From Girardia tigrina (taxonomy: Eukaryota), in assembly GCA_001938485.1 (NCBI GenBank), contig MQRK01237968.1:1-52394 (forward strand): a stretch of 52,394 nucleotides of DNA. Reading direction: 5' to 3'. The notes beneath the pieces are model-generated. The model did not search any database. It saw nothing but the letters and a program-made list of their open reading frames with translations, and was not told where the DNA came from. The translations under genes and the position numbers were made by a program. This document shows positions 1,685 through 46,460 of this stretch, piece after piece (the stretch's first letter is position 1; the number at the start of each line of letters is the position of its first letter).

Positions 1685-3109
1685 CTTAGGCTGTCCCAAA
1701 AGCCCTCAGGAAGCCTTAAAAACACACTAATATTTTACCAAATTTAACCAAATTTGGACTGAATATTATTCAGACTGTCATAAATACTGTGTTAAAATTT
1801 CAAAGCAAAAAATTTGAAACTTACCAAAAAAATAATATTATTAACCAACAAAAAAAATTAGATGCAGCGAATTTAAAAATTTATTTAAAAAAATATTTTA
1901 AAAATTTCTTAAGCAACAACATATTCACCATTGTTGTCAATAACCAACTGACAATAGTTAAAAAGTTTATCTAGTTGATTTTTTAATGTTTCTGTTGATA
2001 AAGAATTAAAATAGAATTTACAAGCTTCTTCAATTTCTTCATGTGATTTTTAAAACTTTTCTTCATTTTTGAAAACAAGAATCTGTCACACAGATTAAAA
2101 TCTGTACTATAAGGCGATTGATATTTTTATTAATTTTTCTTTTTTCAAAAAGAAGAGTTGTTTCTTTGCTAGAATGAGGTCTTGCATTATCATGCCATCA
2201 CTTAAGTTCCTTTAGCTTGATGCTGTTAGATCTAAGTTTCCGCCAATTTTCACCGGTGTCATGAACAAAGTTCACATACGCCTCGGAATCAATCTTGGTA
2301 CCATATGGCAGTGCTTTTACATTAAAACGTTTGTTGCAGGTAAAGGTTACGAAAACAAGAGATTTTTTATCAGTCACTGGCGATGGTTTTATCACTTTTG
2401 GTGGAACAGCATTAGAAGGAATCCAAACTTTGTGATCTTCTTTCTTTCCTCTTGGAAAAAGACCTATGTCTCATCCTCGATCGCTATGTTGAAATATGCT
2501 TCATCACCCATCTGTGAAATTACATGGCATATATGCTTTGCAGTGTTAATGCGTTGTTGTTTATTAGCATCAGAAAGTTCGTGAGGGACCCAGACAGAGT
2601 AAACTTTTTTTGTAATGAAGTTTTTCAAGCAAAAGTTTGTGGACTGTATTTTTGCCCTAAAGAAAGTTCATTTTCAATATAACGCAAAGACGCATTTGGA
2701 GCTTCAACAATCACTTCTTTGACTGCTTTAATCTTTTCATCGTCTATTAATGACGGCCTGCGACTTCTTGATGAATCGTCGAAGGACGTCCGCTTTTCTT
2801 TCTTAAAATCAGTCAACCATTGTTGAATAGTTTTCAGTGCAGGGTGATTTGCGTCTTCCCATGCCTGCTGAAGTTGCTGAAGAATTTCTGAAGCAGAGAA
2901 TCCTCTTTTACTTTGAGTTAGAACAAAAAAACGTTGGTAACATTTATTTGGTTCCATTGTTAATAACCACTTGATTTGAATTCGCTGCACTTTTAAAATT
3001 TCAATACTTTAATGTAACAAAATTTTACTTTTTTTATACTTTGAAATTTTAACACAGTATTTATGAGAGTCTGAATAATATTCAGTCCAAATTTGGTTAA
3101 ATTTGGTAA
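1685..3109 (-). mobile_element. divergent mariner-like element with long (>=71 bp) inverted repeats; decayed transposase
   Basis: Minus-strand pieces: HTH (2625-2990), VWVPHEL (~2580-2600), IEDETY, HDNARPH (~2175-2195), PYSTDFNLCD. Inverted repeat 1735-1805 / 3039-3109 with 1 mismatch. Confidence 0.85.
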
Positions 3110-6660: not shown

Positions 6661-6797
6661 ACTGTGGATCCGATCACGATTGCGTAGTCTTATATCTAAA
6701 AACAAAAAGATATTAGACAGCTAGTACGACATGGAAGCCGAAAAAAGAATTGCCTAAAAGCATTTAGAGAGATCTTGTAACTCGTGACCACGAAAAT

Positions 6798-7370
6798 TTG
6801 TCGTCCAAGCTTCAGCGAACCATTGGGGAAGCAGAACCAGAATGGGAAAACACAGTGAAAGTTATTAAAGCACTACTTGAAAAGTACCGGAAGGTCAAAA
6901 GGACATCTCTAAAGGCAAACTGGTTATATAGTCACAGAACTGAACTAAGTCATCTCATAAACGAAAGGAGTCACCACAGAAAGAAATGGATATTGCACCC
7001 TTCCGCAGAAATTCTGCAGTGCTGGAGAGCCGCACGAAGCAAGGTAAACTATTCCATTTGTAAATGGAAGAGAGAAAGATTGATCAATCTGCAATCATTC
7101 TCCACCGTGGAAAATAATAAAAATCTCCAAGATTTAACCGAACTATTTTTGGAAAATGCTGACATAAACAAGAATGATATCGTCGATTTTATTGAATTCG
7201 TTCGATATGTTGAAACTCAAGATGAAATATTAAATCTTGCCTTTTGTGATATCATGGCAGTATTCCACCGTTTTAAAATTTCTATATCAAACGAGGGAAC
7301 AGATAAATTGTTTTGCTGGGTTGATAAAGACTCTGATATCTTAGAAAGGATCTTTCACTACTGAAACCAC
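6798..7370 (+). pseudogene. chimeric ORF: LINE ORF2 linker fragment (~6798-7095) fused in frame to a SCaMC-like EF-hand fragment (~7120-7370)
   Basis: N-half resembles the LINE endonuclease-RT linker (W...L..LI.ER...RKKW...P......WRAARSKV...I..WK). C-half ADINKNDIVDFIEFVRYV...LNLAF...ISIS....KLF..VDKD..DI.ERIFHY*NH follows the N-terminal domain of Ca-binding mitochondrial carriers, with deletions. Confidence 0.55.
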
Positions 7371-8596: not shown

Positions 8597-9826
8597 TTCT
8601 TATCCTTTAACAGTCGATAATGAAAGGCCTAAATTTATGACGCCACTCCAGTACGTAGAAAAAGGATAAATAATTAATATATTCAAATTATAATAATTAT
8701 AATTATTTATAAATTAAAATTTAAAAAATATAATGTATAAAAAACGATATTTAAATTAGGATTATCGAAGAATTAAATAATAAGAAATGTATATTTTTTA
8801 CTTTTATTCTCTCCTTGTCATTGTTGGTTTTCAATTTTTTCCTACAAATAAATCATCTCGAGAATCGGTTATTGAACTTTCGCCTTAAAATCCAAAAATT
8901 TGAAGAATCTATTTTTGCAAAATTATTCAAACTCAACCTTTGTTCGTAACATCTGTTGGATCTCGTCCATTTGTTTTTTTTAAATATTAATGTGCTCATG
9001 TGACAACGAAAATATTCAGAGATGGACGGTAAAAATTAGAAAGAAAAATTGAAGGCTGCATTTTACTAAAGAAAAATCAATTCTGGATACAATGAAGGAG
9101 TTGGTAAACTTATGGTGGGGATCATCCAATCCAGAAGAAACATACAAAAAAGCAGAAGGACTTGTGAATATACTAACAAAAGAAAAATTGTATAAAAAAG
9201 AACTACTCAACCTTGCCGGTTTAAATATGGTTGACAGTTATGAAATCAAAAAAGAATTAAAACTGAGGGGAACAACTGAAAAAAATTATATAAAAAGCGT
9301 AGTTACCAATATGTATGAACTACGTAAAATGGAAAGTGCGGAAACAGTGGCAGCATATACGACGGTAAATAAATAAGATAATTGGAACACTGTAACTAGA
9401 CGGAAAAGTGTACACAATGAAAGAACCCCGCATAGACATTACGAACACAACAATAGGAACCAAGGAAATAATGGATTCAAACCGAAAAACAATTATTACA
9501 GAACTGTAAAATGGTATATCTGTCAAGAAGAAGGCCACATAAGAATAGATTACCAAAGTGTGAAGTGTACTCACTGCAACAGAAATGGCCATTATAGAAC
9601 TCAATGTTATCTCATCAAGAATAAATTTAAGGAAAGAGATCAGCACAGTAGAAACAGCGATTGGAAGAAAAAAAATAATGCAGGATACCATAATAGACCT
9701 CAAAATCATCAATACCCAGTTGCGGAAATCGATGAATGCAATGACGACAGCGAATACTAGATTAAATCAAGGAAAGTTAACTAAAAGGGTCTTCCCAGAT
9801 AAGAGACAATGGTATGAAAATAATCA

Positions 9827-9873: not shown

Positions 9874-12800
9874 ATTAAGTGATAAAAATAAGTATAATGG
9901 TTTGTGTGATTGTGTATGTGAATGTGTATGTGATTGTATATGTAATTTTATGACTGGAAATAACCCCCTCGAAGTTTTTAAATTAGATTGTTGAAAAGAA
10001 GAATGTGAAGGAAACTGTTTTAGTAGTAAAATGGAAGAAAAAAGAAGCAAAACGAAGAATGAAGAAATTTTAAAAATAACAAAGCTTAACATTAAATATG
10101 ACAAACTGGATGGTAAACCAAGTATAAATTTTTACATTAAAGAAAGAGAAGTACACTGTCTTTTAGACACCGGTGCTAGAGTAAATGTGATTGAATTAAG
10201 TTTAATTAAAAACATACCAAATATTAGGATTAGAGAATGGCGAAGACGTTTAGCATGCGCAAATGCTTCGGAATTAATAAATTATGGAACAGTACTCTTG
10301 AAGATTAAAATTGAAGGGAACCAAAAGAATATAAAATTCTATGTTGTCAAAGGAATGAACCCAGAAATAATAGCAGGAGTGAACTTTTTGAATAATTTTG
10401 GGATAAAGCTGATTAAGAAATCAATACAAAATAGTGATGTATTTATGATAAGGGATAGCCTATCCGATGAAAACAGATTGAAAAGGATAACGGACCTATA
10501 CGGAGGTAAGGTCGATGATCAGTTAATGAACATTATGAAAAAGTTTAAGTCGATATTCATGGCAGATAAATGGGATATTGGGAAAACATCATTGACAAAA
10601 CACAAAATAGAAACTAATGGTGAACCGGTATTAGTAAAGCCGTATAGACAACCAAGACATTTTGATGAAAAATTAGACGAAGTTATTAAAATTTTGAAGA
10701 AAATGATATAATCGAAAATTGTAGTTCACCATGGAACTTTCCATTGGTATGCGTCTGGAAGAAAGAGAAACAAGAAATACGAGTGTGCATGGATTTTCGA
10801 CAATTAAATAAAGTTACTCTCAGACGAGCATTCCCTATGCCAAATGTGAATGATATGTTGAATACATTGAATGGTACCAAGTATTTCACTACAATTGACT
10901 TGGGAAACGCATACTATCAAGTTGAACTTGATGAAGAATCCGGCAACCTTTCAAGAACTAATGGGGAAAATACTTGGGGAATTGAACTAGAAGGAAGCAG
11001 TCGTATATCTAGACGATATCTTGATATTTTCTAAAGATAAGAACGAACATCTACAAAGAATAAAGAATGTGTTTCAAAAAATCAAAAAATCAGTTTCGAG
11101 GATAAATCCAGAGAAATTTCAATTTCTAGTAGAAAAGACCAAGTTTTGGGGTTATGTAATAAGTAAAGATGGTATAGAAACTGATGAAACAAAGATTGAT
11201 GCGATTAACAAGTTTCAAAACCCATCATATATTAAACATCTAAGGAGTTTCTTGGGTTTGACAAATTATTACAAGAAATTCATAAAAGATTATGCAAGAT
11301 ATTCGAAACTTTTAGAATGCATGTGTGGTAAAAACAAGGATGAGAAAATAATATGGACAAAAGAATGTGACGAAGCTTTTCAGAGATTAAAAGAAAGAAT
11401 GGTTCAAACTCCAATCTTGGCGTATCCAGACTTCGATAAAGAATTTATATTGGACACAGACNNNNNNNNNNNNNNNNNNNNNNNNNNNNNNNNNNNNNNN
11501 NNNNNNNNNNNNNNNNNNNNNNNNNNNNNNNNNTGGTTCTCATAAGATGAATAAACATGAACTTGGTTATTGCATTACCAGAAAAGAATTACTAGCGATA
11601 TATTATTTCACTCAGCATTTTAAGCATTTCTTATATGGGAAAAGATTCTTGTTGCGAACAGACGACAATTATAATTGTTAATTATTTTTATTTTGTATTG
11701 ATTACGAAACAAGTTCACGTAACAATACCTGTTCTGTTAGCTTGTTTCTTGTAGGTAGATACAACAATCTGCAAATTGCTTAATATGTCTTAATATAATA
11801 ATTATTATCGTAACTAAAATTTATTCTGAACTATATCAGAAGGGAAAAAAATATCAAGAGTATTGAGTGTTATATCAAGATAAACAGAAATCAGGTTTGA
11901 TAGGGAAATAAGAATAGTTAGTATATCACTAACTGCTTATGTTCAAAGGCTTCTTCTTTAAGGGTATTGTTGGCGCTAATGGAGTGCAATAAATTCACCT
12001 TGATTTGATGAAAGGGTCTTGAAATTCTTGTTGGAAAGAACTATTCTTGTCGTATTTGATAAAGACTTCGAAGGTAAATAGTAGGAAATATTTGAGTTCT
12101 TCAGAATAGAACTTGAACGTAGCTATAACACTTGGATTAAAGGCTTGACGTTGAAAATCCACGAAATAATAAATAATAATCCACGAAATCTAAGGTAATT
12201 ATTTTAATCAATTTTTTTATTGATTTCTTTATTTATTTTTGCAACCTCAATAGTTTTATCTTCAGATATGTGGGAGATGGACTTCTTAATGTGATATTTA
12301 GAAACAGAATCCTCCTGATTCTTATATTTTTTCCTATCTTGAAAATCTGATTTTAAGTCGTTTTAATCAGAACTGCCTTTATTTTTTTAACTGATTTTGG
12401 ACACTTTTTGGACAAAGCATTCCATTTTTATCACTAATTGATGTAAGGTTTGAACTGCTTCTAACTTGGTCAGAAGACTCTTTATCGGGTTTCCAATCAC
12501 TCGATTTATCTGATTTTGCTTTGATCTTATCTGAATTTGATCCGCGTTTGTCTTATTTTTCTTTCATAGACTGATAATAATTTAATTTAATTTTTTTGAC
12601 TATTTGAAATTTTTATTTCATTTATTTATTCATTTTGTTTTATTTAAATAAAAATTATTTTTATTTTTGTATTGAATTAATTGGTTTTACACAGATGAAC
12701 CTTTTCAGAAGATATATATTGACTTTTGTGGTCCATTCAAGATAAATGTTAATGGATACCAGTATATTTTGGCGATAATTGATCAATTTAGCCGATATAT

Positions 12801-13404
12801 TAGCCTGAATGCAGTTGCTCACCAAGACGAGAAAACGCTACGGAAAATATTGCTGGATAGATGGATATATAAATATGGACCACCTAAAGAAATCCATGTG
12901 GATAGAGGCAAAACATTTGAATCAGAACTATTTAAAGAAACACTGAAGAAGTTTAAGATAGAAGTATTTTATTCAAGCCCGTATCACCACAATGTCAATG
13001 GAATTATAGAACGACAATTTAGAATAATTAGAGATGCTCTTAATATCAGAATAAAGGATGAAACGCATAGAGATTGGACGGAAGTAATGTCAAAAATAGA
13101 AGTTATGATGAAAAGTACCATTCAAGCCACGACACGTATCTCACCAGCAGAAATAATATATGGAAGGAAATTAAGACATTGGTGGAAAAAGAAAGAAGAT
13201 AAAAGAAACCAAATGGGAAAAGAAGAAAAAGCTCCAAAAACGAGAAGAATTTTTAAAGTTAGAGACCAGGAATAAACGACCGATATATTGGCCCTGCATT
13301 GATAATAAGACGGAGACATGAAAGAAGTTACGAATTGCAACTCGACAATGGTAAAATACTAATAAGAAATGTAGAATGACTAAAGCCATTTAAATCGAGA
13401 GGGA

Positions 13405-13845
13405 TGTGAGTGAAAATTTGGAATGTTGTAAGTTTGTTGTTTGTATGCTGTTTAGATTTATGAGTGTCCTACTCAGATGGGATTGATATGTTTATTGATT
13501 GATTATTTAAATCTAATGAAATTAATTTAATGATATTAATTTTAATTAAAGTTTTATAATTATGAATTTGAATAATATTTTTAGTAAACGATTTTAACTT
13601 ATTAAATTTAATATATTTTAAAAATTAATGTTTATTTAAAAATTACTTAATACCTTTTTATCCAATAGAATTATGAGAAATTAAAAGTTAACATTAAAAA
13701 ATTTCCCATTTATGTGTTTTTTTAGATTTGAATATATTAACAAAAAACTATATCAAACAAAGGAAGATGCCCTTTGAGAATTGTTGTGAAGAATCTGTTT
13801 GTGTTGTCAATATATGTTTACGTTCAAATTGTGATGTTGTTAATA
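13405..13845 (+). repeat. 3' LTR, subfamily A (TG...TA termini)
   Basis: Follows the PPT. Homology with the solo LTRs at 16109 and 46003 stops exactly at GTTG(T/C)TAATA. Confidence 0.9.
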
Positions 13846-14539: not shown

Positions 14540-15809
14540 TTAGGTTGTTCCAAAAGGAATGCAGGTTTTTGATTTTTTATTTAGCGCGATGTTATATGAC
14601 TAAAGCATGTATGATGTTATGAATCATTCGAAATCATATGAATCATATATACTCTTTCAGATATATTTATCTAAAACTTATTATAATGTTTCTTTTGTTA
14701 ATAATTTCGATTTTAATTGCAGATATCAAATAGTGATTTTTGCAACATTTACTTCTACGACTTCAAGATGGGGCGTAATGCAGTTCAAACCGCTCGAATA
14801 ATCAAGGAAGTTTGGTGCAAAGGAAATGTCATCGAATGCAAGGTGCAGCGCTGGTATCAAAGGTTTCGCTCTGGAAATACCAGCCTGGAAGATGAGCATC
14901 ACGATAGCCACCCATCGATGATTGACAACGACGAATTGAAGAAGCTGGTGGAAGCCGATCATGTTCGAGCATTCACAGAAGAGTTAAACATTGATATCTC
15001 AACCATCATTTGGTACTTGAAGCAAATTGGAAAGTCGAAAAAGCTCTATAAATGAGTGCCTCCCGAATTGAACAAAAGCCAAACAAAGTGTCGTTTTGAG
15101 GTGTCTTTCGCGCTTCTTCTACGCAACAAGAACGGCCAGATTCTCATTGGGATTGTGACGTGTGATGAGAAGTGAATTCTCTACAACAATCGGCGACGTT
15201 TGGCACAATGATTTGACCGGATGAGGCTCCTCACTACTTTCCGAAACCGAAACTTCACCAAAAGAAGGTTATGGTGACTATTTGGTGGTCTATAGCCAGT
15301 CTCATCCATCAAAGCTTTCTGAATACGAGTGAAACGATCACGGCAGTGAAGTACTGCCAACAAATTGACAAAATGCATCACGAGCTTCGAAATATGTGCC
15401 CGAGCTTGGTCAATATGAAGGGGCCAATTCTCCTCCTGTACAATGCCCGGCCACACACTGCAAAACCGACCCTACAAAAGCTAAACAAATTCGGTTGCAA
15501 AACTCTGCCTCATTCACCCTACTCACCGAACGTCTCGTCCACCGGCTACCATTTTTTCATGCATCTGGACAACTTACTCCAGGAAAAATGCTTCAAAAAA
15601 CAAGACGACGCCAAAGACGCCATTAACGCTTTCATCGCATTCAGAACTCAGATGTTTTACACTAGGGGCATCAATAAACTGGGATCTCGGTGGCAAAAAT
15701 GTATTAGTTCAGATGATTTTTATTTCAATAAATAAAGTTTATTTTGTGCTGAGTTACATTTGTTTAAAGTTTAGGTTCAAAAACATACATTGCTTTTGCA
15801 ACAACCTAA
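14540..15809 (+). mobile_element. full-length decayed mariner (cecropia-like)
   Basis: TIRs TTAGGTTGTTCCAAAAG... / ...CTTTTGCAACAACCTAA with TA flanks. Motifs IVTCDEK, (D>Y)NARPH, YSP. Multiple stops and frameshifts. Confidence 0.95.
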
Positions 15810-16108
15810 TATATTAATGACCAAGATAAAAATAAAAAATACCAAACGAGTGATTCTTTTTTCATTGATAGTCAGGAGCGAGATTTGTTGATTAACTCAT
15901 TCGGATATTCGAAAGAATAATCAGTCTTTAAAAATTGACAAAAAAGTCTAGGAATCGGAAAACTGGATTGTAGATCTTTGATAAGCAGAAAAGTAATGTG
16001 GCAAACAATGAGAATAATCGACGCGAGTGCGGTTGAGTACTGTTCGATCTTTTATTATTCTTTTCTTGATGATAATTATAGTCACTCGCCTAGAACAATA
16101 ATTTGGGT

Positions 16109-16559
16109 TGTGAGGGATAATTTGGAATGTTGTAAGTTTGTTGTTTGAATGCTGTTTAGATTTGTGACTCTCCTACTCAGATGGGATTGATATGTTATTT
16201 GATTAATTATTTGAATCTAATGAAATTAATTTAATGATATTAAATTAAAGTANNNNNNNNNNNNNNNNNNNNNNNNNNNNNNNNNNNNNNNNNNNNNNNN
16301 NNNNNNNNNNNNNNNNNNNNNNNNNATATTTTTCAAAATTAATGTTTATTTTAAAAATTACATAATGTCTTTTTATCCAATAAAAATTATGAGAAATTAA
16401 AATGTAATATTAATATTTCCCCATTCATTAATTTTTTCATATTTGAATATGTAATCAAAAACTATATCAATCAAAGAAAGATGACCTCTGAAAATTGTTG
16501 TGAAGAATCTGTTTGTGTTGTGAAAAAATGTTTGCATTCAAATTGTGATGTTGTTAATA
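16109..16559 (+). repeat. solo LTR, subfamily A, 5-bp TSD TGGGT
   Basis: Homologous to 13405-13845. TGGGT at 16104-16108 and 16560-16564. Contains an N-gap. Confidence 0.92.
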
Positions 16560-17999
16560 TGGGTCATGTCGACGATATTGAATTACAAATTGCTTGTTAA
16601 TTATGGTTATATTGTTAATGAACTATACACAATGAACTGAGTCATAAGGATATATCTAACAATATTCACCATATAAATGGACTATAAATGGAATGTCTTC
16701 TAGTAACTGTAGAATTATTCAAGTTTAGTGAATGAATATAAGTCAAGGATATGGAGTGGTCAGGTTTGCTGGGAAACGGTACCTTTTTGTTAAGGACATA
16801 TTTAGAGTTGAAACAACGGTCTAACATTTCCGATCTGTTTAATGATAAGAATAGAAATATGTTGTAGATAATTGAAAATAGTTGACTGAAGAATGTTTAC
16901 AACAAGAGATGAGTTTGGACTTAATAATCTCCAAGGTAAGTATGTCCTAATTCATATTTTAAAATTGTACTCATTGATTATATGAAATTAACATTTTGAA
17001 TTTAATAAATTTTTATAATTCTATGTATTTATAAATGGATTGCTCTGACCAACCATCTGGAGGTGGCAGATTGTAGCATTGCTCACCAGATGATACTGGT
17101 CCAGGTAAACCAAATCGCATAGAGAGATATTACAATAATTAATATGGTATTTAGTTAATCTTATGCATATATATTACTAGAAAAATGTTAAATTAAAACA
17201 TCATTGATGAAAAATTATATTAAGAGTCTCAAATGGAACAAATATATTTTTAACAAAGTAAGTCAAAATCATGAGTAAAGCTTAGACTATCTTTCGCTGA
17301 AAAGGACACGTAAAGCCCTAAATAATGGTAAGTAGAAACGTTTAGAAATTCATTTTAGAATCCAAATCAACACCGACCAGTATTCTAAAATAGAATTAAC
17401 AATCTGTCAAGAGTAGACTGAATTTCTAAAAAATAATAAGGGTATTCTGAGTCCAAGTAATATTAAAAAACAATAAGATCATAAATTATCAGAAAAAGAA
17501 ATCTGTGACCGGACACTGTACAAATCTCGAGACAAGGCGTATTCGGAGAGGATTCTGTCTCAGGATGTCAGCAAGCAGGGACATCAGTTGACACCGGAAT
17601 TGCATTAAAAACTGAAGTCAAAATTCCACGCAGATCATTCATCATTCTGAAGTAACAAAAGGTTTTCCGAATTATATTATTTTATAAAATAATAAAAAAA
17701 TTATTGGATATCATACGACGTTGCTACTGCATAAGTACCATAGCCGGAGTCGTCGTAGATTAACTATTCGTGAATTATGAATTTTTCGATAAATAGTTTT
17801 TAAATTATTTAGTTTTATTTCTAACAAATTTGGGGGAAAATGAGAAATATCGCTTTGGAAGCAATTCGTTTTGATAATAATTAATATTTTAAGTAGATGA
17901 CTTTCGTAGATTTAATTAATTGTCTAGCAAATATCAAATAATGAATACTTTCAATTTGGCATTCACCTACTCGTTTTCATTTACTGATCATATTAATTT

Positions 18000-19927
18000 A
18001 ATTGGAATTAATTCAAACGCCAAAATTAAGAATGCAGCCTTTTTAACTAAATCAATATTTACAAAAGATTGGATGGGTATTAACGACCCTTTAATTTGAA
18101 GTATAGACCCCCAAAATGAGTGGGGGCACTAATGATCAAGGATCCGAATGAAGATCGGTATTCAAGCGGAATTTTCTTAACTGTGACTCTATTATCTTTT
18201 CGATTCAAGTTGATGTCGACGAAATAAACATAAACAGTTCGATAGCCATTGGGGCAGCATTGGAAGTTAAAGGAAATATTATAGAAGACTCACCGTGGTT
18301 AAGGAAAACTGACGATTCTAGGCACATAAACGTAGCAGAACTAAATTTCTAACTAAGTGTCTAAATTTGTGTACTAAATGGGGACTAACGAATGTTGTAG
18401 TAAAATCAGATAACAAATCAGTTGTTTCTTAGATAACTGAGGCACGATCAGAGCAAAATAAATTACACGCGAAAGTCTCTTCCGAGATATTGATAAAGCT
18501 CCGATTGTCAATGATTAAGGAGTTGTGTCAGGAATACGAAATAACTTTGAAAATTGAGTTTGTTAATAGTGAAGACAACAAGGCTGATGAACTTACAAGA
18601 ATACCAAAACAATTAAAACGAAGAAGTTGCCTTTTGTCTGTAACAGATGACCTATTAAAATTACAGAAACTTCATGACAGATGTCATTTATGTGCAAAGA
18701 TAATGTTATATCTGTGCGATAAGTTGGAAATAAATGTGTCAAATGCGGATATAAAGGATTTCATCTCGAAGTGTCAAAGTTGCCAATCTATTGATCCGGT
18801 GCCAATAAAATGGGAAACTGGAAAATTAGCTGTCAATGAAAACTGGATAAGACTTCCAGTGGAGGTCACAAAATTTGATCAACAAAAATTCTTAAGTATC
18901 ATTGATTGTGGACCCTCTCAATTTACTGTATGGAAAGTAATCAAGGCTGAGGACGTCAAGTCGATTGTTACAGAGTTTTCAAATTTGTTCTGCGAGTGTG
19001 GATCCCCCAAGGAGTTGATTATTGACAAGTATACGACATTTCATTCAGCTGAATTTAGCAAGTTGATGGAGAAGTGGAATGTTCATGTCTTATACCGCGT
19101 TTTTAATCGACCAAATTGCAAAATAGAGAGAAATCATAAGACAATCAAGAGAATCACATCTAGATCGAATATCAGTATCATGGAAGCCTTATGGTGGTAT
19201 AACAATACACCGTCCGACGGAAAGGAGACACCTAGTTCAAAACTTTACAAGTACGTTCCAGTCGGTTTGGAGATATTCGAAAGAATTGAAAATGAGCCGG
19301 TTTACAATAAGGTAAAGACAGACTTCGTAGAGCAACAGTTAGTCTGAGTAAGGCCTGAAAATAATATGCCATGTACAAAGCAATGGACAAGAGGTGTTGT
19401 CGTTAGAAAATTGGATCAAAGAAAGTACTTAATAAATTGTGATGGTTTTTGCGGTCCACGGCATATAACAGATATTCGACCAAGACAACTAGACATGCCT
19501 CGAAACTCTTACTCCGATTACATGTTGGAAAATAACAACGAATCACCTTCGAGTGTTAAGCAAAGTGAACCGGAAATCAGCAACAGACCCCAAAGAGAAA
19601 GACGAAAACCGAAATATCTGAACGAGTATGTAGTAGATATAGATTCTTGTGACGAAGAATCTGGGGGGAATGTTACATGTTAAATTTATTTATTAAATGA
19701 AATATTTAACATGAAAAAAGTATTGATATTTATTTGTTTAAATAAGATCTATTAAAAAGTATTTTGTGTTTAAAAATAAATTTTATAGATTTGTTATTCG
19801 TTGTTACATATATTTTGTCTCTATTTTTGATATGAGTATTTTTGATAAACCTGCTGTCATAGTTCCAAAAGATAGGTATAACGAGCTTTTCCTTTACTTC
19901 TTTTCAACATACATTGAAGGTACAACA
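18000..19927 (+). mobile_element. Gypsy-type retrotransposon 3' half (RNase H-integrase-PPT-LTR), second lineage
   Basis: EDSPWLRK..DSRHINVAEL (RNase H), HHCC zinc finger and integrase core in ORF 18490..19347, PPT GGGGGGAA then TGTTAC at 19671. LTR end uncertain (19909 or 19927). Confidence 0.85.
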
Positions 19928-21261: not shown

Positions 21262-22895
21262 TATAAAGAACATTAATTGGGTTTTCTTTACATTTATTTA
21301 TATCACAATTTGAATTGTCACTACAACAATTCTCCGTAAAACTTGCGTAGCTCGTCATCGTTCTTGATTGATAATCTTTAATAATATTCTTTAATGTCTT
21401 ATTATTCAAACAAATTTAATTTACAATTTAATTATTATAAAAATAATTTATACTTTAAATTTAAAATAATTTTTATTTATTTTAAGACAATATTATTAAA
21501 ATATTATTTATGGAATATTAGGTTAATTATAAAGTGATTATTTAAATTTTTGTAATTGATTAAACAACCCGATGTTTTAAAATATTTAAAATATCAATCT
21601 TCCATCTGGGTGGGAGAAAAACAATCCTAAAACAACATACCAAACAACACACAATAAACACCATTCAAAAATATTCCTCACATCCCCCTCGATTTAAATG
21701 GCTTTAGCCATTCTACATTCCTTATCAAAATTCCAATTATTGTCTAATTCAAATTCATAACTTCTTTCGTGTCTACGGTTCTTTATTGTTGCCGGACCCA
21801 TATATCGATCTTCTTTTGTTATGTTTTCTCTCTTTATCAACACCTTGTCACCAACTTGAAAAGTTCGATTTGTCTCTACTACATTTTTGCTCTTTTCTTT
21901 CCTAACCTTTTCTTCCTTCGTATTTTTCCACCAATGTCTTAACTTCCTGACAAATATTATTTCCGCTGTTGAGACGCTTATAGTAGCTTGAATTGTGCTA
22001 TTTAACATAAATTCTACCTCTGGTAAAATTTCCGTCCAGTCTTTGTGAGTTTCATCTTTCATTCGTATATTTATGGCATCTCTAATTGTTCTGAATTGTC
22101 ACTCCACGATTCCCTTGATATTGTGGTAGTAGGGGCTGGAATATACTATTTCATTTTTAAATTTATTCATTATGTCTTTAAAAAGTGCTGATTCGAATGT
22201 TTTTCCTCTATCGACATGTATTTCTTTTGGTGGTCCGAATTTCCAAATTCATTTGTCTGGTAATACTTTTCTTACGGTTTTCTCGTCTTGATGGGCAACG
22301 ACATTTAAACTTATGTATCTGCTAAATTGATCGATTATCGCTAGTATGTATTGATATCCATTAATATTTCCTTTAAATGGTCCGCAGAAATCCATGTATA
22401 GTTTTTGGAAGAGTTCATCTGCAAATTGTTTCACGTGCTTTTCTTATGTTTTCCTTGTTAAGGTCTTTCTCTTCTGACAATTTACACAGCTTTTTACCAC
22501 TTCCTTTATCGTTTCTTTCATATCATTCATATCAAAGTCATCTTTTAAATAATTGTAAACTTTCTTGCTACCAGCGTGACATCTTGTGTCACTCCACAAA
22601 TTCAGTTCTTTTGATTCTCGGGATCCATTTTATCCATTGTGGTCACGATGTCATCTTTCAGTACCCATTTCTTTGTTTTCCCAGTTCTAAGATAGTCTCT
22701 GATTTGGTTTATCTCATCATTATCTTTCTGCCATCTGAATTCTTTTGATTCATCGTCAAGGGCTAAGATTCTTGTTTTAATTTTTCTTTTCTTAGCTTCT
22801 TCGTGCGTCGTCTGACATTGTACACACATTTCGCAGGAATTCCTCTACATGACATCGGCGTTAGTATTTTTCGCCTTTTCATTATTCCATTTTCA
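21262..22895 (-). mobile_element. Gypsy 3' part (RH-IN linker, integrase, PPT, 3' LTR 21682-21262), subfamily C
   Basis: MDFCGPF...AIIDQFSR integrase, PPT GAGGGGGA 21683-21690, LTR starts TGTGAGG and ends AATGTTCTTTATA by alignment to subfamily B ends. Confidence 0.9.
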
Positions 22896-26914: not shown

Positions 26915-27416
26915 TGTGAGGAATATTTTAAATTGTTTGAATGTGTAAATGTAGTGATGCGGTATGTTGATTTAAGTATGTTGAATTTAGAATGGTGATT
27001 CTCGCACCCAGATGGAAATTGGTATTTTTTATTAAGTTTAAAGTGATTGACTATTCGAACATAATTAAAATAATCATTTGATAAGTTCATATTTGTAATT
27101 TCACAATTAAAATTAAGTTTAATAATTTTTAGCAAAATTTAAATTAAATGCATTTTTAATAATTTGATGACATTTTTATTATTTTAAGAATTATTGAGAA
27201 ATGGTAAAACTTATTATTTTTAAATTAATATTTTTAGAGGTTAAATATTTTAAAAAATAATTTAGAAAAACTTGTTCGAATAATCATGATTAACAACAGA
27301 AATAAGAAAACCAATTAGAACGATGGCAAACGATGAAAGACTTTCTGAGAGTCATAATGACTCCAAATGTGATTGTAATAAAGATTCAAACGCGACTTGT
27401 TTAAATGTTCTCAATA
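26915..27416 (+). repeat. solo LTR, subfamily B, TSD GTCCT/ATCCT
   Basis: High similarity (inverted) to LTR 30678-30176. Ends TGTGAGG...GTTCTCAATA. 5-bp flanks differ by one transition. Confidence 0.9.
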
Positions 27417-29139: not shown

Positions 29140-30170
29140 TAATCTTCAAAGTATTCACCATTAGCATCTATGGTCTTTTGCCATCTTTTTGGCAATAAAA
29201 AAGATGTCTTTGGTGAAAAAGTCTTCATCTTTCGAATCAATGAAGTCATCTATGCACTTCTTGAAATGTTGTCCAGAGAGATAATGTAGGAGAGACGGAA
29301 ATATATGAAAATCTGTTGGAGTCAAGTCCGGTAAATAAGGTAGATGCGGTAGAACCTTCCATCCAAGCGGTAAAATAATATTTTTCGTCACCAACGCAAC
29401 ATCGGGTCTAGCGTTATCATGCAGCAGTATGCCATTGGGTCCACTTTGGCCCACATATTTCCTTAACTCGCTGATTTTTTCGTTCAGCTTAGATAGCTGA
29501 TCACAATAGCGCTATGTGATAACTGTTTGCCCGGGATCCAACAGCTCATAATAAAGAAGGCCGTTCATATCACAACACATACACGGATGGAATTTCCTGC
29601 CATGAATATTAATGGAGTTCCGGGGTCTATCCATTGCCTCTTTCGTTTTGGGTTATCATAACACACTCATTTCTCATCCCCAGTGACGATTTTCCATAAA
29701 AACGATTTTCTTCGATTGCTGGTGAGGTGAGCCATAGCGATATTCATTCTATCGTCCTTGTTTCTGGAAGAGAGAGCATGTGGGACCCATCTTGTTGCTT
29801 TCTATACCTTTCCTAGAACTTACAGACGCCGTAGGACTGTCAACTGGTTATCGTTGACAAACTTGGCCAGTTCAGGGGTTGATTGACAATCATCCTCTCT
29901 TAAGAGAACCAGAAGCCCGTCGTCCTTCATTTCTTTTAGTCTACCATTTTGTGGCTGGTCCTCCAGGTTGAATTCGCTCTTCTTGAACTTGGTATACGAT
30001 TCTTTGATCATTGTAAGGCCAACAGAACCTGTACCATATGCTTGGTAAATTTCATCCTTCGTTTGCGACGCCTTTTTGCCAAGATTAAACATAAATAATA
30101 TACAGTGGTGTATGTGATTTTTATGGGTATCAATTTCCTGAATAATAAAAAAATTAACACGTGGATTTTC
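29140..30170 (-). mobile_element. mariner transposase body; its 5' end is displaced to 33707-33763 by a Gypsy insertion
   Basis: HTH (29820-30092), WVPHAL, IVTGDEK, LHDNARP, PYLPDLTPTD. TIR-like TTAGGTCGATGCATAAGTTTCCGA on minus at 33740-33763. Confidence 0.9.
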
Positions 30171-31808
30171 GGGACTATTAAGAACATTTAGACAAGTCTC
30201 GCTTGAATTTTTATTACAATCACTTTTAGAGTCATTAAGACTCTCAGAAGGTCTTTAATCGTTTGCCATAGTTCTAATTGGTTTTCTTATTTCTATTTTT
30301 AATCATGATTATTCGAACAATTTTTAAGTCATTTTTTAAAATATTTAACTTCTAAAAAATATTAATTAAATAATAATAATTTTTACCATTTCTCAATAAA
30401 TCCCAAAATAATAAAAATGTCATCAAATTATTAAAAATGCATTTAATTTAAATTTTACTTAAAAATATTAAACTTAAATTTAATTGTTAAATTAAAAAAA
30501 TATGAACTTATAAAATGATTATTTTAATTATGTTCGAATAGACAATCACTTTAAATTTAAATAAAAAATACCAATTTCCATCTGGGTGGGAGAATCACCA
30601 TTCTAAATTCAACATACTTAAATCAACATACAACATCACTACATTTACACATTCAAACAATTTAAAATATTCCTCACATCCCCTCGGTTTAAATGGCTTA
30701 AACCATTTTTCATTTCTGATCAAAATCCTGTCGTCATCTAGTTGTATCTTAAACTTCCTTTGTATCTTTGCTTTATAATTTTAGCTGGTTCCATATAGCG
30801 GTCATCATCTTTTGATGGGTTAACTTTCTTTATCAATACTTTATCTCCGACCTGAAATATTCGCTTTGTTTCAATTGTATTTTTATTTTCTTTTTCTCCA
30901 ATTTTTCCTTCAGTTGTGTTCTTCCACCAATGTCTGAGTTTTCTTTCGAAGATTATCTCGGCTGAAGATATTCCTGTAGTTGCTTGAATTGTACCGTTTA
31001 ATATGAATTCTATTTCTACCAACATTTTTTCCTGTAATAGTCTACTGAAAACCTCTCGCATATTTTTTTATGTAAACACTTCGTCATTTCTTTTTGTACA
31101 TTATTTGATGATTTTTTTTGTTTTTTCGTAATTCTTATTATTGCGCCTAGTCTTTTTGTCTATCTTTTTATATATTTTTTTAATTTTTTTATGCAAGTCC
31201 AAAGTTATATAACGACAATATTATTACAATTACGTTTGTCTTGATTTTGTAATTTTTAAAAGAAAGAAAGAAAGAAGAAGAAGGATAAGAAGAAAAAGAG
31301 AAGGAGCAAATTCGTTGTTTCTCCGATCTCGTAAAACCAAAAGCCAGCCATTCATTCATAATATTATTTATTATCTACTTGGGAATACGATTATTAAATT
31401 TCAAGGTTTGAATTTGAATTTAAAAAAATCAATACACAAATTAATTAAATTATATCTAATTGAAAGTAACTTATTATCGCTGATTGTCGACAACTATTCC
31501 GAGAAAACCGAATATATCTGAGAATTATTCTATTTTGTCTGACATTTATTATTTTACTAACTTTGGTGACAACATATGATATCAATTGTGAGTGATTGTT
31601 TAGTGAATAAAAAGAAGTTAATTGTTGTAAACAAGATTCTTACATTATTGTATTTGTTAAAGTTATTCATTTTTTTTACAATTTTAACAAGTCCACCGAA
31701 CAAGCTCTTTGTTCTATTAACTTGGTTAGATTTTTCTTATATACTATAAAAAAAATAAAGTTTCCATTACCAATAAGATAGACCAGCGAATACTTTATTT
31801 TTTTATAG

Positions 31809-33495: not shown

Positions 33496-33989
33496 TTAAT
33501 TTTAATTGTTAAATTAAAAAAATATGAACTTATAAAATAATTATTTTAATTATGTTCGAATTGTTAATCACTTTAAATTTAAATAAATAAAATACCAATT
33601 TCCATCTGGGTGGGAGAATCACCATTCTAAATTCAACATACTTAAATCAACACACATCATCAATACATTTACACATTCACAATTTTAAAATATTCCTCAC
33701 AGGGACAATTAAAGAAGTAAATCAATTTTTTATCAAAGGTCGGAAACTTATGCATCGACCTAACAGTAGTAAAATTTTGCTTTGTTTAAATGCAAAAAAT
33801 TAAAAATTTTTGTTTGTGAATGGAGTAAATTGTTAAAATTTTTGAAAACTTTGTTTTGAAGACTTGTTGTCACATAATTATGCAAGCAAAAGGGTCGTTG
33901 AAAAAATAGTTTTGGAATAAAATATTTTTCAATTTCTGGACGAACCGATATGCTCTTCGGTGTTATATTGACCAGATTATTATGTTATA

Positions 33990-37139: not shown

Positions 37140-37490
37140 TTAGTTCAGATCATCGTTTGAGCGGTAAATTGTAAAGGCCATGTGAATAAAAAATTTTTGT
37201 CGAGAATCTATAAATTTCAGGAAGGCCATTTTTATGGCATCTTCGGAATGGAATTTTATCCTATCAAAAAGTTGTTTTACATTGAGGAAGAAATAGTACT
37301 GAGTTAGGGCTAGGTCTGGTGAGTAGAGAGGAGGAAGATGAGAGTTGACCTGTTTACCAAACACGGATGTTTTTATTTTGAGTTTCTGCATCATATCTTT
37401 CAATTGGTTGCAGGAGACTTCTGCTGTGATCGACAAACAAGATTTCATGAAGTCATAATGGATTACTCTTAATAAAAAGTTTGGATTCCT
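37140..37490 (-). mobile_element. internally deleted mariner remnant
   Basis: IHYDFMK...SITAEV..NQL..M and PLYSPDLALTQYYFF. Confidence 0.8.
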
Positions 37491-37735
37491 TATAAATGAT
37501 GACTTTAAGTAATATTAGTCTACCTTCAAAAATTTATTCAGAGCAGAGAGGTGCGATTATTCGTAAAACTCGATCAGAAATCATTGCCTAATTAGTTTTT
37601 AGTTCAATATAATGGAGAAAATTGTTATAAAAACTGTAAAATAAGCCTCGTTAGAAAATTTTATTAAATACACTAAATGAATAAATCTTCGCATTTTATT
37701 TCAAGATAAAAATCACAATTGAGAAACTTTACGGT

Positions 37736-38410: not shown

Positions 38411-40773
38411 TGTAACATGTTATAATCCTATAATTATTAATGAAATATTTGTTTTAACAATAAATTTTTGTTAAAAGCGTGATTTGTTTTTTTTGTTACA
38501 TCTCAATTTGTTCAAACTTACAAGCTACTCGGCCAAGATGAAGACATTGATTAAAACTGTTAAACAGTACAATGGAGAAGAGGATATTAGAAAGTGGATA
38601 TGTTGAAAATGATCTGTGGGAATATCAGCGAATGTTTATTAATGATTGTCCTATCAATAAACTCGATTGGGTTTTGGATTGGCTTCAGCTCCGAAGATCA
38701 TGAATAGAATACTAGACTTTATTTTAGAAACTCAGAATGTATTTAAAAAATGGGTATCTTATTATGTGGACGACTTGATTGTAAATGAAAATATAGTTTA
38801 GGTTTCGGAAGTGAGAAATCATTTAGAAAATTATGGACTGATATGTAAAGAACAAGAAAAAATTAGCACGACAACAGTTATTGGGCTTCAGATGTATTTG
38901 AAGCAATACGTATTGATGTGGAAAAGAACGAATAATTTTAATATAGCGGAGGATCAAGTAATGACGAAGGAATGAATTTATTCTATATGTGGTAAATTAA
39001 CTGGACACTATCCTGTATGTGGATGGTTGAGGGTATCGTGTAGCTATTTAAAACGAATGTGTAACGGAATAGATTGGAATCAACCGGTATCACGTATAAC
39101 AGAAGTTTTGATGAATGATTTATTAGACAGAGTAAATAAAGACGATCCTGTGAAGGGCGTATGGAATTCATCAACATCAACGTCAACTAAATGGAAAGTT
39201 TGATGTAACGCAAGTAAGATAGCAACAGGATGTGTTGTTGAGTGTAATGGGAATACGTTAGAGGACGGTAGTTGGCTTAGAAAAGAAGATGATTCGAGTC
39301 ATATAAATGTAGTTGAACTAGAGTCGGTGATCAAAGGATTAAATATGATCTTAAAATGGAACGTGAAAGAGTTTGGCATAATGACAGATTCTCAAGCAGT
39401 GTGTGGTTGGTTAAACTCCGTTGTTGATCAGAATAAAAAAAAATAAAAGTAAGTGGAATAAATGAAATGTTGGTCGAGCGTCGTTTAAAAATGATTGAAG
39501 ATATAATTGGAGAATTTGATCTTCGATGTAAATGTGTGTGGATACATTCAGAGCAGGATATTATAGATCGAATGACTCGAGTAAAACGAAGTTGGCTGGA
39601 TATGGAAAAGCCAAATGTAGCAATGACTGTAAGTGAGTGTAAATCTGCAATATCTGACATCAGAGAACATCCTAATTTGCACCATATGGGTGTTGAAAAG
39701 ACCATTTATTTACTCGAGAGATATGGGATAGCAGCAGACGTTGATGAAGTTAAAATGGTGATAAAAGAGTGTAATAAATGCAACAGTATCAATCCGTCAC
39801 CGAAGAGAGTAACTCATGATTCGTTAAGTATTCAAAGTAATTGGGAACGTTTAGCGTTAGACCATACACATTACAATGGTATTATGTACTTGTCAATGAT
39901 AGACCAAGTAGATTTTCTGTATGGAAACGCGTGAATTCTGAATCGGCTCAGGATGTGATTGCACAATGTCAAATTGTATATTCAGAAAGAGGACCTCCAC
40001 GAGAAATCTGGGTGGATAATGGAACTGCGTTTAGGTCATCAGAATTCGAAATGTTGAGTAACTCATGGGAGTAAATATTATTTATAGATGTGCATATAGG
40101 CCATCGACAAATGGTATTGGGGAGAGATGCCATCGCACAATTAAACAAATTGCGAAGAGGTCTCATATTCCTGTATGGAAAGTAGTATTTTACTACAATG
40201 TAGTATCTTGTGGAAAGGTGCAGACAAGGTAGTTCCAGTAAAGTCTATATACAGATATAACATCAGATTACCAGTAATGCGTGATGTAGCTGAAAAAACG
40301 GTAAAAATGAATGGAAAATCGGTGATAAGATGTTTATTAAACCTCGTCAACATACACGATGCACGGACACATGGACAACGGGTGTCGTAACAAAGGTGGT
40401 TAGTGATAAGTGTGTTGATGTTGATGGAGTACTGAGACACATTCAGGACATACGATAGAGACAAGAAGAGAACATCGGACTGTCGGATATGGAGGTTGAC
40501 GGAAAAAACGAAATACAAGTTGGATATAGCAGTAGTAGTAGTAGTTACGAGGAAGAATCTGACGATCAAGTCAATCAGGACATTTGCATACGACGATCCA
40601 GCAGAACTCGGAAGAGACCTGATTGGTTAAACGATTATGTGAACTAGGGTTCAGGTTTGGATATAATTATTAATGAAATATTGGTTTTAATACTGAGGTT
40701 TTTGTTGTAACAATAAATTTTTGTTAAAAGTGATTTGTTTTTTTTGTTTCATCTCAATTTGTTCAAACTTACA
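38411..40773 (+). mobile_element. internally deleted two-LTR Gypsy-type element (same lineage as 18000-19927) inside the Scratch intron
   Basis: LTRs 38411-38522 and ~40660-40773, both ending CAAACTTACA. Flanks AACCC/AATCT. Gag start MKTLIKTVKQYNGE, RT YYVDDL, RNase H EDGSWLRK..DSSHINVVEL, integrase HH-CC and VDNG. Confidence 0.9.
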
Positions 40774-45299: not shown

Positions 45300-46460
45300 A
45301 TTGGAGCTCACGGCACGACACCAGAATTCCATATATTTTTTTACGGCATACCCTTGAACCAGAATCGGCATTCGCCATAGAGTTAAGAAATTCTAATGGT
45401 CACTGTATAGATTCCACTAGGGTCGGTTACACTCCTCAACCTCTGTTGCGCAACAGCCATGAGTAAAATTTCTGTCTTCTCATGTAGTTTTGCACAATTG
45501 CGATTAAGGTTATTTATCCGTTTTAACTGATTTTCATTTACAAGCCGTCCATGAAAACTATTAGCAACATCACAACTTGAGTGTAAACATTTAATAACAA
45601 CACAAACATTTTCCATAGCAATTTCTGTGGGAAGCGTCATTCTTGATTAATGTTTTTGTATATTCTTTCAAATCTTAAAATTAATTAATGGTACAAGTTT
45701 AATATTAACTTTTTATTTCTCAAATTTTATTGGATAAAAATGCATTAAGTAATTTTTAAAATAAACATTAATTTTTAAAATATATTAGATTCAATAACTT
45801 AAAATCGTTTACTAAAAATATTATTAAAATTTATAATTATAAAACTTTTAATTAATTAATATTTAAAAATTAATCTCATTAAATTAATTTCATTAGATTT
45901 AAATAATTAATCAATAACATATCAATCCCATCNGAGTAGGAGAGTCANAAATCTAAACAGCATACAAACAACAAACTTANAACATCCCGAATTTTCCCTC
46001 ACAAAAACCTTGCCTTGTAAACCCTCATATATNTCTCTATGGTGGAGAACAGTTGAACAACCAGGGTTGCTTTTTCCTTGGAGGTGAACGGTCTGACTCC
46101 GCATATAACTCATCAGAACGCCTTAATATNGAATAGNTATTAGTAGAATAGCTACTAGGCTCCNATGACTTCTTACTAACATCTTGTTACACTTATTCTA
46201 GNGTTTTTCTCTAGGATTGCCTGTAATCCATGGAAGGATTTATATAATTCACTCACTTGTCTATTAATTATACCCGACTGGTCGTTNTAATTTTATTGTA
46301 TNTGAAACCGAAGCTCATCTTCTCCATATAGTCTTCTTCCGCCTGAATCATCCTCTATGAAATCCGAAAATACTTANCATTAACACTGACAAGGGTAAGG
46401 TCTTTTGTATGTAAGCTCTGAAAACTGCAATCCTCTAATAATTTTGATGAANCATAATTA
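45300..46460 (-). mobile_element. non-LTR retrotransposon remnant (post-RT region, R4/RLE-like), split by a solo LTR
   Basis: DSGGRRL (GGRGL-like), LQGKVF|HGRL and KLHEKTEILLMAVAQQRL resemble the K.LHG...L..ETE..I.A.Q.Q.L region of such LINEs. Confidence 0.55.
45559..46003 (-). repeat. solo LTR, subfamily A-like, 5-bp TSD GTTTT
   Basis: Homologous to the 13405 and 16109 copies. Plus-strand AAAAC at 45554-45558 and 46004-46008. Ends GTTGCTAATA. Confidence 0.92.

Follow-up and report, generated by a model that had tools for sequence, protein, structure and literature searches.

LTR retrotransposons that begin with TG and end in TA mark one clade of at least six Gypsy families, which lies inside CA-ended relatives. 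In retroviral-type integration the terminal CA is regarded as nearly invariant, and the TA end described here is carried by the great majority of the copies of these families. The window, i.e. the whole stretch of 52,394 nucleotides from Girardia tigrina that was analysed, is an AT-rich (29% GC), repeat-filled contig from a genome of 1.43 Gb.

LTRs of the window

The complete LTRs of the window belong to three subfamilies (A, B and C), with 74-81% identity between subfamilies and 87-93% within each (Table 1). Upon re-reading, all six start with TGTGAG and end in ATA, as the preliminary description had claimed, and the target site duplications (TSDs) that it listed were recovered as well, with TGGGT, GTTTT and GGGAC being exact and GTCCT/ATCCT carrying one mismatch. 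GGGAC corresponds to the GTCCC/GTCCC pair that brackets the subfamily B element between the start of its truncated 5' LTR (33701) and the end of its 3' LTR (30176); these two LTRs are 95% identical over 204 aligned bases. Upstream of the subfamily C LTR, a polypurine tract (PPT) and an integrase (IN) remnant reach approximately position 22421, and the broken pol of subfamily A contains the IN loop SPYHHNVNGIIERQFR near position 12982.

At positions 13391-13410, as in relatives, pol reads through the PPT into the LTR, and in the TA clade the last pol codon and the stop fall on the first five LTR bases. The unrelated element used earlier as a control does end in CA, but its TSD is imperfect and the TGG primer site is absent after its 5' LTR. 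The window also harbors relics of Tc1/mariner transposases (15217-15735, 29820-30254, 37140-37514 and 2625-3008) and two open reading frames with no Pfam match (18433-19347, 304 codons; 6768-7364, 198 codons).

Table 1. LTRs and associated features of the window.
Feature	Positions	Strand	Remarks
Gag remnant, decayed, subfamily A	8990..9760 (approximate)	+	5' LTR and PBS gone; gag-start motif at 8994
Broken pol, Gypsy order PR-RT-RH-IN	9995..13275	+	Split by a gap and an unrelated insert
Polypurine tract adjoining 3' LTR	13391..13404	+	
3' LTR, subfamily A	13405..13845	+	TG...TA (TAATA)
Left TSD	16104..16108	+	TGGGT, 5 bp
Solo LTR, subfamily A	16109..16559	+	TGTGAG...TTAATA; 73-N gap at 16253-16325
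U5 frame	16481..16559	+	ATG and 25 codons, then terminal A; read from sequence, tested at family level
Right TSD	16560..16564	+	TGGGT
3' LTR, subfamily C	21262..21682	-	TG...TA (TTATA)
Solo LTR, subfamily B	26915..27416	+	TG...TA (CAATA); TSD GTCCT/ATCCT, one mismatch
3' LTR, subfamily B	30176..30678	-	TG...TA (TAATA), then GTCCC
Truncated 5' LTR, same subfamily B element as 30176..30678	33496..33701	-	GTCCC before it
Unrelated decayed LTR element (earlier control)	38411..40773	+	TG...CA; imperfect TSD AACCC/AATCT
Solo LTR, subfamily A	45559..46003	-	TG...TA (TAATA); TSD GTTTT/GTTTT

Termini and target site duplications of genomic copies

For each of the three subfamilies the best 30 of 40-43 scored matches were taken, and the ends of the resulting 90 copies, among them the three queries from the window and a small number of duplicate contigs, were read after removal of 8 bases from either end of the query. 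The TA end was present in 87 of these 90 best-matching copies (29/30, 28/30 and 30/30 by subfamily), the other three ended in AG, AA and TT, none of the 90 ended in CA, and 83/90 started with TG. Among 73 solo-like copies (71 distinct flanks), 52 showed an exact 5-bp TSD at the TG/TA boundary and 11 more a TSD with one mismatch; shifted registers gave exact 5-bp TSDs in at most 16/73, and random re-pairing of flanks gave an average of 1.3 and no more than 6. This tabulation, proposed in the preliminary description as a check, places the TSD peak at the boundary given there. Shifted boundaries with TSDs of other lengths were rejected, as 4-bp registers restate the 5-bp TSD plus a variable flanking base and the best 6-bp register was found in only 14/73 copies. 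The target-site profile is symmetric across 51 sites.

Loose contig ends fall at the same positions. In public data (four runs, each from a different study), 134, 29, 26 and 39 contigs broke off at the final A of the LTR, and 277, 56, 37 and 60 at its first T, with no penultimate C among the 40 of 109 rows listed. A search by primer binding site (PBS) only, blind to the LTR end, revealed TA at 34 of 35 readable junctions, and the DNA upstream of the sole CA junction is unrelated. In two full elements both LTRs end in TA and the TSDs are exact, namely L246 (TSD ATATG; LTRs 97.1% identical, ungapped) and L248 (TSD CTTGC; LTRs 96.0% identical). In both of them, members of subfamily C, the 5' LTR exceeds the 3' LTR by 28-39 bases.

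Young copies with identical LTRs, to which the preliminary description had pointed for a decision, were absent from 20 long regions picked from LTR and IN matches; LTR pairs were present in five of these regions, and the best pairs, 96-97% identical, bear TA at both LTRs. In a sister family with CA ends and of comparable age (LTR pairs 96.8%), 30/30 copies end in CA, and TA is therefore inherited rather than a product of decay. Together with TA at both LTRs of full elements and with the trees below, these counts bear out the heritable, asymmetric end that had been postulated in place of C>T decay. Genome-wide, 2793 ATA and 2344 ACA primer junctions were counted against controls of approximately 50 each, part of the ATA junctions being decayed CA families. 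Of 21 sampled ATA junctions, which come from 20 loci chosen among the first 100 listed, 13 belong to TA families, three match CA-family ends and five are unassigned.

Phylogenetic position of the TA-ended families

Further TA families, E (12/12 TA; approximately 62% IN identity to A) and F, were found in addition to the three subfamilies of the window. An IN tree of 70 rows, with none dropped, placed the 11 TA rows in one group (SH-aLRT 99, quick search). The RT-RH-IN tree (21 rows, LG+G4, no mixture model) united six TA families with 100/100 support, their TA labels being assigned via 91-100% IN identity to end-typed loci and not from the same molecule. In both trees, outgroup included, this group is nested among CA-ended families. 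The phylogenetic check suggested earlier thus yields one clade, for which a single origin of TA would be the simplest reading. A return to CA was seen neither in the 90 copies nor in the six families (IN identity down to approximately 62%).

A search of metagenome contigs retained 58 loci, 15 of which combine the IN motif of the clade with a readable junction of LTR and primer site; 14 of these end in CA and one (L121) in TA. The family of L121 also occurs in this genome (G000), and because both this locus and the metagenome copy of the mirror family described below lie near families of this genome, they provide no clear evidence of TA from a distant host. Three more divergent TA junctions (L263, L264 and L270) may represent extra TA families. 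The order pol-LTR-PBS-gag was observed in metagenome loci L122, L123, L126, L129, L131, L136, L137 and L140, an order to be expected of one-LTR circles, of tandem copies or of loops in the assembly.

The clade displays the pol order of Ty3/gypsy elements (Metaviridae), PR-RT-RH-IN, along with direct LTRs (L246, L248), a tRNA-Arg PBS, a PPT and a TSD of 5 bp, which falls within the 4-6 bp of this group; TG...CA termini, typical but not universal in Metaviridae, are replaced by TA ends. The best match of its intact Pol among solved structures is Ty3 of yeast (E=1.8e-98). Placement among plant-type Copia elements was rejected despite the TG...TA ends, since IN lies after RT-RH and not upstream of RT. 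The termini of Errantivirus/Zam (AGTTA...TAAYT) were not seen in the window or the copy set, nor were the CG...CG ends and 3-bp TSD of Troyka. Close relatives are nearly all unnamed metagenome proteins, and the reference elements CsRN1, Mag and Gmr1 are not among them; Atlas matches comprised generic integrases only, and none of 63 pattern matches in IMG/VR codes for a relative. Microsporidian Gypsy groups (1-3) are described in the accessible text of PMC4202319.

Primer site and U5 reading frame

In TA and CA families alike, the PBS adjoins the last LTR base with a spacer of 0, and it is complementary to tRNA-Arg(ACG), with 7-18 matching bases in 129/133 junctions. The tRNA-Arg(ACG) genes lack an encoded CCA (the strict form of the tRNA-Arg pattern gave 0 matches, a looser form 20 places), and in L314 tRNA-Arg genes stand in tandem at approximately 430-base spacing. 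At L310:350-425 a TA-ended LTR is fused to a whole antisense tRNA-Arg including CCA (73/76 bases). The presence of a whole antisense tRNA with non-genomic CCA on the LTR therefore fixes the priming register. LTR ends fused to 37-42 matching tRNA-Arg bases, CCA included, were observed in L309, L310, L312 and L313; such fusions are likely products of reverse-transcription read-through into the primer.

The last A of the LTR and the TG of the PBS form the ATG that opens gag. In the gag frame, the last 26 codons of U5 are open in 27/29, 28/28 and 29/30 TA copies, and the same stretch is open in 0/28 copies of the CA control. An in-frame ATG lies 22-32 codons upstream in all seven chosen TA representatives despite indels between families, whereas CA representatives have a U5 extension in 14/24 cases, mostly shorter. 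We infer from the sequence that this gag extension is translated; within families, third positions are not consistently enriched in substitutions.

The last LTR codon is AAT in TA families and AAC, TAC or CAC in CA families. The changed T occupies the third base of an Asn/Tyr codon, where C>T is silent and a purine would give another residue or a stop. The overlapping frame to which the unusual end had been linked is real; however, because C>T is silent at this third base, it allows TA and does not select or cause it, and a frame that forces T was rejected. Across deep divergence, the 24 CA representatives all keep the C, so that most of the clade still favours it.

Integrase loop at the DNA end

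Alignment with PFV integrase revealed that the active-site loop of the clade reads SPYHHxxNGxxERQFRT, with His at the position of PFV Pro214 and HIV Pro145. Apart from single-copy changes the motif is identical in 10 TA and 19 CA rows, and the start of helix 4 is likewise identical in TA and CA families. CA sisters have the same loop, and a change in it was therefore rejected as the origin of TA. The relaxed end recognition suggested in the preliminary description has no TA-specific counterpart at this loop; any relaxation would be clade-wide and older than TA. The inspection of IN residues recommended there showed no difference in the end-gripping loop and uncovered 16 columns elsewhere that set the TA clade apart, nearly fixed there and rare in CA families. 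None of them lies in the loop or in the first two turns of helix 4, the nearest being E+9. Any clade would be expected to have such columns; a compensatory role of one of them is conceivable.

The loop His occurs in all 74 readable proteins of the inner clade (defined by RT similarity) and in 27/31 outer ones, and is therefore much older than TA. In an outer group (P0189-P0224, 46-55% RT identity) the loop reads Y[QDC]H; the replacement of Pro by His therefore predates the studied clade.

A mirror family with TA...CA ends

On another branch of the same clade, a family with the opposite arrangement, TA...CA, was detected (L345-L374 in this genome; L129/L140). Of 30 copies, 25 start with TA, four with TA at a one-base shift (three of these duplicates), one with TT and none with TG; 24/30 end in CA and 5/30 in TA (three of these duplicates). 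An exact 5-bp TSD was found in 20/28 solo-like copies. In the RT-RH-IN tree the mirror family and the TG...TA clade occupy separate branches, and a TA-3' reactive end has therefore been fixed twice, once per end; the end change of the mirror family is independent of the TG...TA change. No family with fixed TA...TA ends was seen.

Origin of the TA end

The TA end probably originated as a C>T change in an ancestral 5' LTR, which was copied to both LTRs and tolerated by an integrase without a matching loop change. A single C>T in U5 of the founder's 5' LTR would have been transferred by reverse transcription to the U5 end of both LTRs, as in the model put forward for U3 in TARE1, and the integrase, its loop unchanged, would tolerate TA at one end. 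Because the spacer before the PBS is missing, the U5 end would need little or no 3' trimming, and the C would not be needed as a mark of the cut site, while the U3 end would remain canonical. The reading frame would admit only a pyrimidine as the penultimate base and in this way account for the fixation of TA instead of GA or AA; both ends would be joined by the normal concerted reaction. Exact TSDs and the symmetric target profile fit two-ended integration, not the host-repaired insertions reported for retroviruses with one mutated end (accessible text of PMC7912079). The unprocessed U3 end of foamy virus offers a precedent for the absence of trimming (PMC6784120, PMC3738965, both in the parts available). 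From the comparison of sequences, tolerance of TA is likely; the 16 IN columns outside the loop, the C kept by the 24 CA representatives and the lack of pairs with identical LTRs count against it.

An ancient pre-adaptation of the whole clade, in which the Pro>His replacement loosened the reading of the C:G pair so that any pyrimidine-A end is accepted, is possible but doubtful. It would agree with the age of the His (74/74 inner and 27/31 outer proteins), with the CA>TA change having arisen twice in the clade, independently and at opposite LTR ends, and with the contacts of loop residues to the DNA end, given that Pro214-Gly218 of PFV wedge the DNA end (available part of PMC6784120) and that in RSV the counterpart of Gln215 stacks against the G that faces the terminal C (available part of PMC7955051). 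However, most His-loop families are TG...CA (14/15 metagenome loci; the 2344 ACA junctions here), RSV has Ser at the loop Pro position and uses CA ends nonetheless (PMC7955051, same part), a fixed TA...TA family was not found, and plant Copia elements arrive at TG...TA by a separate route. We regard only as tentative the wider proposal of a His-loop, spacer-less Gypsy clade whose intasome reads pyrimidine-A and skips trimming, a capacity that would have been exploited twice, once per LTR end. If the pyrimidine-A reading is true, these families form a natural series in which the CA rule of retroviral-type integration could be dissected.

It is unlikely that the TA lineage gained integrase changes elsewhere and now prefers TA: the 16 nearly fixed columns and the absence of reversion in 90 copies or six families would suit such co-evolution, but private residues are found in any clade, these are absent from the loop and the first two turns of helix 4, and the same enzyme must also join CA at the U3 end. 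Selection of TA for gag translation, through codon use or start context, appears very improbable; the longer U5 extension of TA families speaks for it, yet AAC>AAT is silent, the mirror family altered the opposite end, and a consistent third-position excess within families was not observed. C>T decay after insertion, or an error in the boundary, can practically be dismissed, for although 3/21 sampled ATA junctions match CA-family ends and 5/30 mirror copies (three duplicates) end in TA, CA was found in 0/90 copies of TA families versus 30/30 in the control, full elements carry the TA end in each LTR, and the boundary is the same by TSD, PBS and loose contig ends. The preferred reading thus remains a tolerated C>T change in U5.

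Comparison with known systems

The full-text literature, with Repbase and most subscription journals outside the scope, yielded neither a non-plant Gypsy clade with TG...TA ends nor the SPYHHxxNGxxERQFRT motif; the available parts of PMC8632968, PMC3738965 and PMC3276498 contain no mention of TA ends. Supplementary Table S2 of LTR_retriever may list TGTA Gypsy elements. The warning that LTR finders would miss such elements applies to strict TGCA settings and was overstated in general, as LTR_retriever includes TGTA among its non-canonical motifs (accessible text of 10.1101/137141). Strict TG...CA settings would lose a large share of the clade, ATA junctions being about as common as ACA. Three end types (TG...CA, TG...TA and TA...CA) coexist in one genome with the same loop, primer and TSD length, and provide a natural comparison by which to judge the importance of the C and the sufficiency of a single canonical end.

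As in Ty3 of yeast, the pol order of the clade is PR-RT-RH-IN and priming uses a tRNA. The ends of Ty3 are TG...CA and its spacer is trimmed off, whereas no spacer precedes the PBS here. Heritable, multi-copy families with the same terminal dinucleotides occur among plant Copia elements, such as onion AcCOPIA1 (cited in the available text of PMC5659011) and the 941 TGTA copies of lotus (available text of PMC9804982), and Copia elements of plants make up 89% of classified non-TGCA elements (PMC5659011, PMC9804982 and 10.1101/137141, in the parts available). In contrast to these mostly plant Copia cases, the elements described here form a clade with Gypsy gene order that comprises at least six families; the genome is AT-rich and not plant-like, and the CA sisters of the clade carry the same integrase loop.

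For TARE1 of tomato, a single-mutation model at the U3 end has been proposed (available part of PMC3701649), which resembles our reading in that one terminal-dinucleotide transition is copied to both LTRs and then amplified. The ends of TARE1 are those of the mirror TA...CA family; it is, as far as the same part describes it, a single species-specific Copia family altered in U3, whereas the window lineage was altered in U5 and later comprised several families. Heritable non-TG...CA ends in animal Metaviridae-type elements are likewise known from the Zam clade of errantiviruses (AGTTA...TAATT/TAACT; Table 3 in the available part of PMC3601003) and from Troyka (CG...CG, 3-bp TSD; available part of PMC12440569), but in both of them, as described there, both ends are altered, whereas here one base at one end is changed and the TSD is 5 bp.
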